A stretch of 64,000 bases of DNA from an uncultured Pseudomonadota bacterium (GCA_963726085.1 CAVSAR010000011.1:74298-138297); one strand, 5' to 3'; positions 10,905 through 41,621 are shown, counted from the first letter of the stretch. Program-made: numbers and translations. Notes: generated by a model from the sequence alone, not told the origin.

Positions 10905-11961
10905 TCAGAAGATCCCGGTCGGCGCTTCCATGGTGACGTCGCGCGCCTGGTCCGACATGCCCTGCTCCCAGGTGCTCCAGCCGGAGTTCATGCCGTAGGG
11001 GGCGCGCTGCAGGACTGCCTGGATCTTGCGGATCTTGCCCTTCTCGATCTTGAACAGCTCGGCGATCTGCCAGGTCCACGGCTGCACCGGGCCGGCAACG
11101 ACCTCGCGCCCATCGGGTGTCTTGAAGTGGCGGGTGTCGCCGCCGTAGTGATCAAAGAAGCCGAACGCGAACACGATGCCGCGCTCCTGGTCTATGGCCA
11201 CGAAGCGCCGGTCGCGGATGCGATTGACGAAGTGCAGCAGGCCGGACTTGAACTGCTCCATGCAACTCCACTGCGCGGAATAGTCGGTGGAAGTCAGCGG
11301 ATCGGGCTGCGTCTGCCCGGCGGGCGTCGGCACGTTGGTGGTCTGGTTGCCGTTCTCAAGGCGATTGCAGTCATCGCGCGAACGGATAATCGCCCTTGCC
11401 GTCGTTCTTCTGCATGCCGGTGAAATACTTGTTGCGCCGTGGCGATCAGCTCGGCGCGCGACATGCGCTCCGCCGGCGGCACCGCCTGCAGGTAGATCGG
11501 ATCGGTACCCAGTTCTTGGCCGTCCATAGGTCCAGCGCCGGCCGCTCGTCGCGCACCACCAGCTGCTCGATTTCGGTGATCTGGCCGTCCGGCACGCGCA
11601 GCCGCAGCGCGATCAGTGAGCCGTTGCCCTTGGCCGGATCACGGTTGTCCTCCTCGATGGTGCCGAAGAAGGCCACCTGGCCGGCCGGCACGTCAGTGAC
11701 GAACAGGCGGTACTTGCCCTTGCCCTGCATGGTGCTCCACAGGCCATCGCCGATGAGCAGGCGCTGACCGTCTTCGGTGAACCTCACGTTGGGCGACAGC
11801 GGCACCATGGACGGCTGGTTCGCAGCAACGGCGTCCAGGTAACGGTCGACGAAGCCTTCCAGGCACGCGCGGTCGCAGGCCGACTGGGCGGCGTGCACGG
11901 AAGACGTGCCCGCGATAGCAATAATTGCCGCGACAACCAAAGTAGTTGGTGCAAAGCGCAT
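10905..11961 (-). pseudogene. Hypothetical secreted protein interrupted by two frameshifts (possible sequencing errors).
   Basis: Three co-linear minus-strand ORFs in different frames (11446..11961 with signal peptide MRFAPTTLVVAAIIAIAGTSSVHA, 11294..11527, 10905..11333) tile one about 350 aa reading frame. Confidence 0.45.
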
Positions 11962-12021
11962 GAATCCCCCCGCTTGTTATGGTCGGGCATTCTGCACCAT
12001 CCCGGGCGACCTGGTCGACGG

Positions 12022-12996
12022 CTACTGCGGTTCTATGACCTGGTAGCCGCGCTGCCGAAGTTCGTAAAGTATGCCGTCCTTGGCCATCAGCTCGCGGATC
12101 CCCACCACGGCCAGCGTACCGCTGTTGCGCTGTAGTGCGCCCTCCATTGCCAGCAACAGCTCCAGGCGGAACTTGCGTCGTGCCTCTTCATACATCGTCG
12201 CCAGGCGCGGCGTGCCCAGGAGCAATTCCAGGCAGCGTTGCTCGGGAGAGTCCGCCGATATGTTGCGCAACGGCTCGAGGTCGCCAGTCGCCCAGGCATT
12301 GGCCTCGACCTGCAGCTGCGGCATGTCGTGCTCCATGCGTGCGACCAGTCCTTCGAAGCAGCCGATCTCGGCCTTGAAGTCCGACTTGGCATAATCATTG
12401 ATTAGGCCCTTTGGATCCTGCACCTGTAACGGGATCGAGGAGCGCCGGATCTCTACGCCATTGTGCTTGGCGGCCTTCTCCACCACCGGCCAGACCACGT
12501 TCTGCTCGCTGAGCTGCGCCGCATCCAGTGCCTGCGAATAGAGAATGAATGCGGCCAGCGCCGGTCGCCAGTGGTCTATCTTTCCCGGCGGCGAGTAGCG
12601 CGCCTTTAGCACCGACCAGCGCGCATAGAGGTCTTTGGGCAATATGTCCGCCAGGGTCTTGTCACCGGGAATCGAACGGGCCCGCAACATGGCCGGTAGC
12701 AGCCGCAGCCCAGTAAAGAAGCCGATTCCGGCACTGACTTCCGGCGGCGCGATCACGCTCTGCGAGCGTGCAATCACGGACTCGACCTGGCGCGCGCGCC
12801 ACTGCATCTTCTTTGGCAGGGGTGCGTGCGAACCCAATATCCACAACGTGTTGGCGCCGTTCTTGACCTGCCAGAGGCCCGGCCCCGGTTGCTCACCGGT
12901 TACGACGACCTCGTCGAGGACATCCTCGGCGTGCACGCCCTTCACCAGCAGCAGCAAGCCGAGCACGGCGCAGCGCAACGCGCGAGCGCGGGTCAT
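12022..12996 (-). CDS. TraB/GumN family protein.
   Basis: Start MTRARALRCAVLGLLLLVKGVHA (cat 12994-12996) gives a signal peptide. The rest resembles GumN/TraB-type proteins. This is a recognition call and was not computed. Confidence 0.6.
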   Translation of the reverse strand: MTRARALRCAVLGLLLLVKGVHAEDVLDEVVVTGEQPGPGLWQVKNGANTLWILGSHAPLPKKMQWRARQVESVIARSQSVIAPPEVSAGIGFFTGLRLLPAMLRARSIPGDKTLADILPKDLYARWSVLKARYSPPGKIDHWRPALAAFILYSQALDAAQLSEQNVVWPVVEKAAKHNGVEIRRSSIPLQVQDPKGLINDYAKSDFKAEIGCFEGLVARMEHDMPQLQVEANAWATGDLEPLRNISADSPEQRCLELLLGTPRLATMYEEARRKFRLELLLAMEGALQRNSGTLAVVGIRELMAKDGILYELRQRGYQVIEPQ

Positions 12997-13088
12997 GTGC
13001 CGCCGGCCAGGCGACCCTGATGCATGAGCGCGCGCAGCGGAACAAGCGGAGCCATGTGCTGCGCCAGAATGGTCCTGCGGCAAATGTT

Positions 13089-38778: not shown

Positions 38779-38782
38779 TCCG

Positions 38783-40624
38783 ATGGACCTGAGCCACAAG
38801 CCCTTGCGTGTATTTGCGTTCTGCGTGATCGCAGCCTTGCTGATCGTGGCGCTGGTGAATCTCTACCAGGCACAGCGGGTGCGTCCCGAGCAACGCGACA
38901 TCCCATACTCGCAGTTTCGCGACGATGTCGATCATGGCCTGGTGCGCAGCGTGCGGATATCCGGGCAGGAAATCACCGGTACCCTGGCCGACCACAAAGC
39001 TTTTCGCACCTACGCAGCAGTGGACCCGGATCTGGTCCCGGCGCTGCGGGCAAAGGCGGTAGTCATCACCGCCATCGCAGCACCGGCCACCGGCTCGACC
39101 TGGCCCACGCTCCTGGGGACCTTGTTGCCAACCCTACTGCTGCTGGGCGTGATGCTGATCTTCATGCGCCGGGTTCCCGGGCTCAGCAGCGGCAGCATGG
39201 GACTGGGCAAATCCAAGGCGCGGCTGCTGACGCAGACCGCGGGGCGCGTGACCTTTCGTGACGTGGCGGGAGTCGATGAGGCCACGGAGCGACTGCAGGA
39301 AATCGTGGATTTCCTGCGCGATCCGCAGAAATTCCAGCGGCTGGGCGGGCGGATTCCGCGCGGCGTGCTCATGGTGGGGTCCCCGGGGACCGGCAAGACG
39401 TTGCTGGCACGCGCAGTCGCGGGCGAGGCCAACGTGCCGTTCTTCACGATCTCCGGCTCGGACTTCGTGGAGATGTTTGTCGGCGTCGGCGCCTCGCGCG
39501 TACGGGACCTGTTCAACCAGGCCAAGAAGAGCGCGCCGTGCATCATCTTCATGGACGAGATCGACGCGGTGGGCCGGCGGCGCGGCGCCAGTGTCGGCGG
39601 GGGCAACGATGAACGCGAACAGACGCTCAACCAGTTGCTGGTCGAGATGGATGGATTCGAATCCAACGAAAGCGTGATCCTGATTGCGGCGACTAATCGC
39701 CCCGATGTCCTCGACCCTGCACTGCTGCGGCCCGGGCGTTTCGACCGCGAGATCGTGGTGGGCAACCCGGACGTCCTGGGCAGGGAACAGATTCTCAAGG
39801 TTCACGTGCGCAATGTTCCACTTGCCGCCGACGTTGATCTGGCTGTCATCTCCCGCCGTACCCCCGGATTTTCCGGCGCCGATCTGATGAACCTCGTCAA
39901 CGAGGCGGCCTTGCTTGCAGCCCGTCGCGCGCAAAACACAGTGGGCATGCGGGAATTTGAGGACTCAAAAGACACGGTAACCATGGGCGCCGAGCGACGC
40001 ACCCATGTAATGACCGAAGACGAACGCCGCCTGACAGCCTATCGCGAGGGCGGCCGGGCGATCGTCGCAATGCACGTCCCGGCCGCAGACCCGATTCACA
40101 AGGCCACCATCGTTACACGCGGGCGAGCTACCGGCATGGTCAAGCAGCTCCCGGACAACGACCAGTTGTCCATGACACTGGAGCAGATGAACTCGCGGCT
40201 GGCGATCCTGATGGGCGGCAGGGTTGCCGAGGAAATGATCTTTGGCCGGCTCAAGGTCACTTCGGCAACCGCTGGCGACATCGAGATGGCTACCCGGCTC
40301 GCCCGAATGATGGTCACGCGATGGGGACTCTCCGAAGCGCTGGGTCCGGTCGCCTATGGCGAGAATGTGGAAGACGCATTCCTCGGCCACTCGGTGGCGC
40401 ACGAGCAGAACTATTCCGAGCACATCGCGCAAATCATCGCCGTCGAAGTGCGCAAGCTAGTCGATGCGGCACTGGCACAGGCCCAGGACATCCTCGCCAC
40501 GCATCGCGCGCAGCTGCAAACACTGGCTCACGCGCTACTGCGCCATGAAACACTGAGTGGCGATGAAATCCGAAATCTGCTGGCGCCAGGCCCCGGAACT
40601 GGCGCAGATCCAGGGTCCTGCTGA
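38783..40624 (+). CDS. ftsH: ATP-dependent zinc metalloprotease FtsH (paralogue).
   Basis: Start [25 protein letters not shown] is preceded by AAAGAGAA. Walker A GSPGTGKT, second region of homology, and zinc site HEGGRA (written here as HE..GRA context: [19 protein letters not shown]). Confidence 0.9.
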
Positions 40625-40714
40625 GAGTGCACACGGCCGCAGCTGCGGCCGATTGGCCGGTCCACGCGCGTGGATCTGGCTTGCCAAGTTGCCCGGCCGT
40701 GCCATGCTGCAGAC

Positions 40715-41621
40715 ATGGTGCGCCACGGGCTCGTCCTTGCTCATCGAATGCTTGGCGTCGCACTGGCGATCTTGCTGGTACCCGCGGCCCTTACCGGGAG
40801 CGTGCTGGTCTGGAAGGACTCGCTCGATGCGCGACTGAACCCCCAGCTGTACTTCGCCGGCGACCACCGCGCAACCCTGAGTGAACGCCAGTTAGGTACC
40901 CTGCTGCGGGACCGGTTTCCCGCGGTGCGGATCGGCTGGATCGAAATGCCCGCCGCGCCTGGACGCAGCGCAAGGATCAGCGTGGGCAATTGGCCACGCA
41001 CCGACATGCAGCGGCAAATCAACGAGGTGTTTGTCGACCCGGCCACCGCGGATATCCTGGGGGTCAGCAGCACGGTCGCACCGGGGCTCAACCGCCAGGA
41101 GATCATTCCGTGGCTGTACCGTTTCCACTACACCCTGATGCTGCGTCGCACCGGCATGCTGATCATGGGTGCGGTAGCGATGGCCTGGTTGCTGGACTGC
41201 GTTGGGCATGTTGCTGACGTTTCCCAGGTCCCTGTTTCGCTGGAACAAGTGGCAGCTGGCCTGGCGCGTCCGAACCTCGCGCCTGGATTTTGACTTGCAC
41301 CGCGCATCCGGGCTCTGGTTCTGGCCGGTCCTGGTGATCCTGGCTGCATCGAGCGTTTACCTGAACCTTACCCACGAGGTGTTCGTTCCGGTCACGCAAT
41401 GGCTGGCGCGGGCACTGTTGCCCGAGCACCTGAGATTGCCGGTGACAGACGCGGTGCTGGACTGGCAATTCCCGCTGCACAACGGCGAGGCCTTCGGCCT
41501 CTCAGGACGAATCATCGTCTGTACCTGCGGTCTGGTCATTACCGTCCTCGCGGTCAGCGGGATCGTGACCACGATGCGCAAGTTATCAACCGGTCGCCGC
41601 CATCCGCACATCCCTGGCTAA
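40715..41621 (+). pseudogene. PepSY-associated TM helix domain protein, interrupted by one frameshift (probable sequencing error).
   Basis: Start MVRHGLVLAHRMLGVALAILLVPAALTGSVLVW. The frame switches near 41205 (LLDCVG / MLLTFPRSLFRWNKWQLAWRV) and continues with DLHRASGLWFWPVLVILAAS. Confidence 0.55.

Follow-up and report, generated by a model that had tools for sequence, protein, structure and literature searches.

The stretch of DNA considered here, 64,000 nucleotides (nt) from an uncultured Pseudomonadota bacterium (GCA_963726085.1, CAVSAR010000011.1:74298-138297; below, the window), contains several genes whose reading frame switches internally. These are a DUF8021 gene, the three genes of an SPFH-SPFH-P1B-ATPase operon, and a PepSY_TM gene, and the question they raise is whether they are decaying in the organism or were broken only in its assembly. 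The evidence set out below indicates that the breaks, ten in all, are very probably errors in the consensus of a metagenome assembled from long reads and not the marks of decaying genes. In the organism itself, all five genes most likely remain intact and functional, as judged from their sequences.

Breaks were located with a frame plot of GC content at third codon positions (GC3), a self-trained codon model, Pfam searches, three-frame reading, tblastn, and MAFFT or other DNA alignments. By both the GC3 frame plot and the codon model, the coding frame switched on the same strand and without a gap at 10.9 to 12.0 kb, 33.0 to 37.0 kb, and 41.2 kb, and in the Pfam searches the Band_7, E1-E2_ATPase/Hydrolase, and PepSY_TM domains were each divided over separate open reading frames (ORFs). 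The original prediction, that frames switch inside genes with homologous protein on both flanks, was upheld by the Pfam splits, the codon model, and jumps of frame in tblastn. It had listed eight positions and counted "at least nine" breaks; the breaks do exist, and the total found in the record was ten, in five genes. Each of the ten can be undone by altering 1 or 2 nt.

Seven of these, where the original prediction had counted five in three adjacent genes, fell in the operon between 33 and 36.4 kb, and all seven were -1 events, that is, single-base deletions. The first gene, encoding an SPFH/Band7 protein (32997 to 33984, plus strand; orthologues of 322 to 326 amino acids [aa]), lacked an A at 33236 (CCG[A]TCGATC) in a MAFFT alignment of 32990 to 37030 with 18 orthologous loci. 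Its Band_7 profile was divided accordingly, with profile positions 2 to 34 ending near 33230 in one frame and 37 to 174 lying in another. A second base was missing within 33946 to 33981, with the C5 run at 33956 to 33960 as the candidate site. The second SPFH/Band7 gene (33981 to 35071, plus strand; orthologues of 363 to 368 aa) lacked a T at 34683 (TCGC[T]GGGCG). The ATPase gene (35076 to 37028, plus strand) carried three deletions: one at approximately 35117 to 35134, only about 50 nt past its start and possibly in the C5 run at 35130 to 35134; one at 35331, where a G was missing from GCCT[G]CGGCA; and one at 36318, where a variable codon was short by one base. The first of the three had been missing from the eight predicted positions. 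The gaps at 33236, 34683, 35331, and 36318 were private to the window among the aligned loci, and tblastn with intact orthologues gave frame jumps at 33233/33236, 34682/34685, 35332, and 36333 to 36363. The events within 33946 to 33981 and 35117 to 35134 were required by frame arithmetic (0>2>1, 0>2, 0>2>1>0).

When the seven bases were added, each operon gene became a single ORF free of in-frame stops (326, 363, and 650 aa). The repaired first gene ended in GAAPPPGKAGTQK followed by a stop (...GKAGTQK-TGA), and its restored TGA at 33982 to 33984 overlapped the GTG start of the second gene as GTGA at 33981 to 33984. The same stop/start overlap is the usual arrangement in most orthologous loci, and the expectation that one base near 33.955 kb would restore it proved correct. 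By its Pfam domains (PF00122 and PF00702) and by the motifs LTGES, SCPC, FDKTGT, HP, and GDGINDS in the repaired translation, the largest broken gene is a P1B-type (heavy-metal) P-type ATPase. As a query, the repaired protein retrieved thousands of intact relatives of 640 to 648 aa, the best with 87% identity, and relatives were named heavy-metal or Cd2+/Zn2+ ATPases by their sources.

The DUF8021 gene (PF26061, NTF2-like; 10905 to 11961, minus strand) encodes a protein of about 348 aa and has orthologues of 340 to 354 aa with up to 81% identity. Breaks had been predicted at 11.33 and 11.45 kb; the gene was indeed broken, at three places rather than two, near 11528, 11430, and 11378, as found by three-frame reading, tblastn, and alignments. 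DNA alignment with two orthologues placed a +1 event near 11378 (an extra C in TTCGCG[C]GATGAC), another +1 event near 11430 (one surplus base in GCG-CAAC-AAG), and a +2 or -1 event near 11528 at CTGGACCT. With intact orthologues as queries, tblastn gave a frame jump at 11377/11375, and the gene was otherwise colinear with its orthologues.

Just downstream of this gene, beyond the range covered by the original prediction, lies a short DUF8021 paralogue (10464 to 10894, minus strand), which has its own signal peptide and represents only the C-terminal third of the family. Compared with seven orthologues, it has an in-frame TAG near 10526 in place of Gln (WGG-Q-IHEIEA), a 3-nt deletion near 10640 that turns FRHPMTQ into FRH-LTQ (PM to L), and a -1 frameshift near 10507, before IGVTTPYNSPTGWEE. 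Since its stop codon arose by substitution, the short ORF is possibly a true gene relic, the alternative being that it belongs to the same low-quality stretch. Together, the broken gene and the short paralogue carry six lesions within 1.1 kb.

The tenth break lies in a gene for a short PepSY_TM membrane protein of about 302 aa (40715 to 41621, plus strand; Pfam and tblastn). At 41201 (TGCG/TTGG), a single nucleotide stands in place of an orthologue codon, amounting to a -2 or +1 event; in tblastn, query residues 1 to 162 ran in frame +2 to 41200 and residues 164 to 294 continued in frame +3 from 41202. No orthologue of this gene was present in the orthologous loci collected for the operon, and its orthologues came from a search of representative proteins. 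The nearest of these were of the short form, 282 to 320 aa with 44 to 53% identity, and aligned end to end with the window's protein, which was otherwise full length.

Contrary to the prediction that every break would lie in a homopolymer or GC run, no fewer than four of the ten sites were in mixed sequence: 33236 (CCG[A]TCG), 34683 (CGC[T]GGG), and 35331 (CCT[G]CGG), all placed by the alignment of orthologous loci, and 41201. C5 runs were plausible for only two breaks, at 33956 to 33960 and 35130 to 35134, and both of these lie in poorly alignable tails where exact placement is impossible. Hence, the indels were not all confined to runs of identical bases, and the sites outside homopolymers suggest that the long-read consensus was of low quality, not that homopolymers were miscounted in the classic way. 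No motif shared by the contexts of the aligned breaks, such as a methylation site, was apparent.

The breaks in the operon could be compared with sequencing technology in 60 loci that carry it, 10 from the Microflora Danica (MFD) catalogue of metagenome-assembled genomes (MAGs) and 50 others. The MFD MAGs are Nanopore-only, assembled with Flye (--meta --nano-hq) and one round of Medaka without short-read polishing (PMC12313526). Operon genes spread over more than one frame were found in 4/10 MFD loci (L053, L057, L058, and L066) versus 0/50 others (Fisher P = 4 × 10^-4). Frame junctions backed by at least 10 orthologue queries were found in the window, in 7/10 MFD loci, and in 0/50 others (P = 3 × 10^-7). 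The short-read assemblies (k141, k127, and NODE) and one HiFi-style assembly had all three operon genes in a single frame. Breakage therefore followed technology and not lineage. The positions of the breaks differed among assemblies, as did the lineages (Terriglobia and several Gammaproteobacteria), which excludes the shared ancestry of real pseudogenes. In L058 (8850 to 11560) and L066 (8840 to 11950), the damage was restricted to the part encoding the second SPFH protein (SPFH-2) and the ATPase, with long ORFs on both flanks, as in the window. Private-indel counts for these two loci are perhaps partly inflated by the aligning of a divergent stretch; their damaged part holds no long ORF, so real breakage exists there too.

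Other observations were made in the Nanopore assemblies. A heavily frameshifted SPFH-2/ATPase segment flanked by long ORFs was seen in further MFD MAGs of different lineages (L053, L057, L050, L029, and L036). L058 and L066 shared insertion columns (window equivalents 34739, approximately 34874, 34908, and 34963, and 36470) in which the inserted bases were different. One locus was present on two contigs of a single Nanopore metagenome with names ending in _np1212 (L084, 3203 to 5021; L083, 3194 to 5029); the 5'-nucleotidase gene there was a single gene of 611 aa in the long contig and was split into 314 and 285 aa in the short one, likely another consensus error.

Within the window, the lesions were strongly clustered. 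The index of dispersion gave P values of 3 × 10^-5 to 2 × 10^-4, and 10 indels placed uniformly would be confined to 5 or fewer of 53 genes with a probability of 6 × 10^-4. Pfam detected no divided or truncated domain in the other genes among the approximately 53 of the window, of which about 48 look intact, and orthologue queries detected no frame junction at 28 to 33 kb or 37 to 40.6 kb. As originally predicted, the large genes were intact: the three RND permeases spanned positions 2 to 1020/1021 of the ACR_tran profile, and FtsH covered its profile from end to end, as did the other sizeable ORFs tested, including a TonB-dependent receptor, an OPT transporter, hydrolases, and TIR-TPR proteins. 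Further frameshifts suspected from the codon model at 13.1 to 14.4, 15.9 to 16.9, 45.9 to 47.7, 51.6 to 53.1, and 56 to 63 kb were rejected, as Pfam resolved these regions into separate complete genes.

Apart from a shared motif, two simple causes of the clustering were considered and rejected. The overall GC content of the window is approximately 64%, and only 34 to 36 kb is unusually GC rich (0.69); the DUF8021 region is not, which speaks against high GC as the cause. Paralogy within the genome was set aside because two RND permease genes (22266 to 25261, plus strand, and 48479 to 51468, minus strand), which are inverted paralogues with 76 to 83% nt identity over approximately 2.4 kb, are both intact and free of breaks.

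The exact proteins of the window, including one fragment ORF, matched a single assembly only, a 302,158-bp contig present in NCBI and ENA (exact-sequence look-up); thus, no independent sequence backs the indels. A second assembly of the same species was sought by protein and genome scans, and nothing closer was found than loci with at most 87% aa and 76 to 81% nt identity, so that these offered no sister strain for a direct comparison of strains. Many of the best ATPase relatives carried Steroidobacteraceae MAG names, and the source is an uncultured Steroidobacteraceae-like gammaproteobacterium. A megablast search of the two main regions against the PLSDB plasmids gave no match, and a search of the window found no long exact repeats of the kind that would prove a long-read origin.

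Taken together, these data favor consensus error. The long-read assembly was probably Nanopore-only and never polished with accurate reads; by analogy with the MFD MAGs, the window's own assembly would be of this type. The local pile-up of errors would then reflect a locally poor consensus, possibly caused by a dip in coverage or by the collapse of reads from co-resident related populations at a highly conserved operon. Orthologues with approximately 80% aa identity occur in MAGs labelled Bryobacteraceae, Terriglobia, Caulobacteraceae, and Xanthobacteraceae, and the operon is perhaps horizontally shared. Of the two alternatives raised originally, local low-quality consensus fits best, and a decaying metal-handling locus is at odds with the signs of selection described below. 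Assembly indels rather than real pseudogenes, as had been proposed, are supported by the clean repair, the retention of conserved residues, and the restriction of the multi-frame operon to Nanopore-only MAGs.

Several points weigh against consensus error. The link of the window to Nanopore sequencing rests on analogy. With the nearest orthologues at 87% aa and 76 to 81% DNA identity or less, any single site could be a very recent real event. A uniform error process does not account for the approximately 50 kb, the three 3-kb RND genes included, that are clean, and the clean state of the RND paralogues indicates that sequence similarity alone does not induce errors. Finally, the error spectra are not identical: those of L058 and L066 are mostly 1-nt insertions, while all the events in the window's operon are deletions.

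The SPFH-SPFH-ATPase segment might also be in itself an error hotspot for Nanopore metagenome assembly, being broken in the window and, independently, in several Nanopore MAGs of different lineages whose flanks are clean; L058 and L066 even have insertion columns in common. Such a hotspot could stem from a true biological property of this DNA in soil communities: dense or unusual base modification would derail basecalling at the segment, or else a near-identical operon circulating horizontally in many co-resident populations would leave no single consensus to be called. As an account of the window, an intrinsic hotspot is nevertheless unlikely.

That the metal-handling operon, the DUF8021 gene, and the PepSY gene are genuine pseudogenes, inactivated by frameshift and decaying, could be suggested on three grounds. 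The lesions are limited to a few genes, as if those loci had become dispensable; the adjoining short DUF8021 paralogue, with its nonsense codon, 3-nt deletion, and frameshift, looks like a true relic; and several indels lie outside homopolymers, unlike classic sequencing error. Frameshift pseudogenes under relaxed selection would show an excess of changes at conserved sites, nonsense codons, or truncation, and none of these was found. Removal of the indels gave full-length ORFs that were colinear with their orthologues and had no further defect. Private changes, defined as substitutions seen only in the window at columns invariant in 40 to 60 orthologues, numbered 0/91, 0/63, 1/294 (ATPase), and 0/133 (DUF8021) after repair, no worse than in the orthologues themselves. 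Although independently frameshifted two or three times each, the genes thus had no in-frame stops and a single private change over 581 invariant residues.

The size of this deficit can be estimated. In bacterial mutation-accumulation data, substitutions outnumber small indels approximately tenfold (an indel-to-substitution ratio of 1:10). Genes with two or three breaks would already have been non-functional when the later ones arose, and at this ratio approximately 9 to 15 private changes and a few nonsense codons would be expected. The probability of one private change or fewer was 1 × 10^-3 to 5 × 10^-6 if the second and third breaks were neutral mutations. Moreover, the broken operon genes were the best conserved of the locus, with approximately 90, 80, and 87% aa identity compared with 44 to 73% for their intact neighbors, a pattern that, in these sequence comparisons, is the opposite of that left by decay. 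All 50 short-read or HiFi loci were intact, and like damage occurred in Nanopore-only MAGs alone, in unrelated lineages and at other positions. Natural decay is not known to produce an indel-only mutation spectrum this dense, and genuine pseudogenization of these genes is judged quite improbable.

A mixed case would have most breaks as artefacts and a minority as real variants of one strain within a multi-strain consensus. The PepSY break, both C5-run sites, and the small DUF8021 remnant might be such variants. Homopolymer slippage is the commonest natural mechanism of frameshift as well, the PepSY gene has one isolated break, and the stop codon of the DUF8021 remnant is of the substitution type. 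Marked microdiversity has also been described in soil MAGs of this kind (PMC12313526). On the other hand, neither conservation nor context sets the candidate sites apart, and the PepSY protein is full length, so that the mixed case as a whole has very little probability. Programmed recoding, in which ribosomal frameshifting or transcriptional slippage would allow expression and for which only the two candidate sites in C5 runs could be cited, can practically be dismissed, as no slippery heptamer is common to the ten sites, at least four lie in mixed sequence, none of the orthologues in 50 accurate assemblies is frameshifted at these positions, the gaps are private to the window among the 18 aligned loci, and a gene would require as many as three shifts.

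The setting of the operon was the same in the window, in the contigs of two relatives (L001 and L002), and in approximately 60 loci from species-representative genomes: one strand carries genes for HupE/UreJ_2, a PPIase, and cytochrome c, and the opposite strand carries genes for SPFH proteins of approximately 600 to 670, 322 to 326, and 363 to 368 aa and a P-type ATPase of 644 to 647 aa. In the window, the flanking genes identified by Pfam were all intact. Those upstream encode HupE/UreJ_2 (28002 to 29213, minus strand), the PPIase (29210 to 30286, minus strand), a dihaem cytochrome c (30163 to 30987, minus strand), and the large SPFH/Band7 protein (30999 to 32969, plus strand). Downstream are CbtA (37044 to 37811, minus strand), which is a probable cobalt transporter subunit, a small ORF that is possibly CbtB (37852 to 38178, minus strand), a further ORF (38191 to 38778, plus strand), and FtsH (38714 to 40624, plus strand). 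The presence of HupE/UreJ_2, and of CbtA and the possible CbtB right behind the ATPase, suggests that cobalt/nickel is the theme of the locus. The first small SPFH protein begins (32997 to 33060, plus strand) with HHDNPDHDHDHDHDHDF, a tract rich in His and Asp that stems from a CAC-GAC repeat and exceeds that of most orthologues by one codon; this tail may bind metal, which would suit the HupE/CbtA/ATPase neighborhood.

The SPFH-SPFH-SPFH-ATPase operon was also seen in L020, L030, L036, L040, L042, L045 to L047, L053, L056, and L059, with an ATPase identity of 73 to 80% and a match at approximately 10001 to 11900 in most. These MAGs are labelled Caulobacteraceae, Xanthobacteraceae, other Alphaproteobacteria, Bryobacteraceae, and Terriglobia; the presence of the operon under these labels suggests horizontal spread or mis-binned contigs. 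Elsewhere in the window, at 185 to 7618 on the minus strand, there are three full-length paralogous proteins with TIR domains and TPRs (286 to 2229, 2096 to 4351, and 5567 to 7618), a fourth TIR-like fragment (185 to 281), and, among them, an M20 peptidase gene.

Automated annotation would call five or six pseudogenes in this contig, the heavy-metal ATPase operon included, and a loss of metal handling or genome decay in the lineage, if inferred from these calls, would be spurious. The earlier caution that such calls should not be taken at face value is therefore well founded, the breaks being most likely consensus errors. A frame-aware comparison with orthologues, combined with a check for missing substitution decay, provides a cheap flag for such errors. 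Errors in assemblies of this kind can form local clusters outside homopolymers, which genome-wide checks of coding density miss. No new biology is implied; the locus is of value in urging caution on annotation and in illustrating how indel errors outside homopolymers can cluster in long-read MAGs.

Among known systems, the window resembles the residual indel errors of Nanopore-only MAGs, in that its single-base indels break conserved genes whose accurately sequenced orthologues are intact; in the Flye and Medaka Nanopore MAGs of MFD (PMC12313526), the same operon is broken. It departs from the classic residual error of Nanopore sequencing, which an R10.4 benchmark gives as homopolymer indels (PMC9262707), in that most of its sites lie outside homopolymers and that the errors show strong clustering instead of being scattered over the contig. 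It also differs from L058 and L066 in being deletion biased, whereas their errors are insertion biased. With frameshift pseudogenes, for example those of host-restricted or recently niche-shifted bacteria, it shares homology on both sides of each break and lesions concentrated in certain loci. Unlike them, it lacks nonsense and missense decay, has multiple breaks per gene, is affected in its best-conserved genes, and has relatives in which these genes are intact. Compared with the metal-handling operon (SPFH/Band7-P1B ATPase) found in Steroidobacteraceae and in soil bacteria of other groups, the window has the same gene order and differs only in its frame breaks, and its repaired proteins, with 80 to 90% identity, are ordinary members of that operon type.

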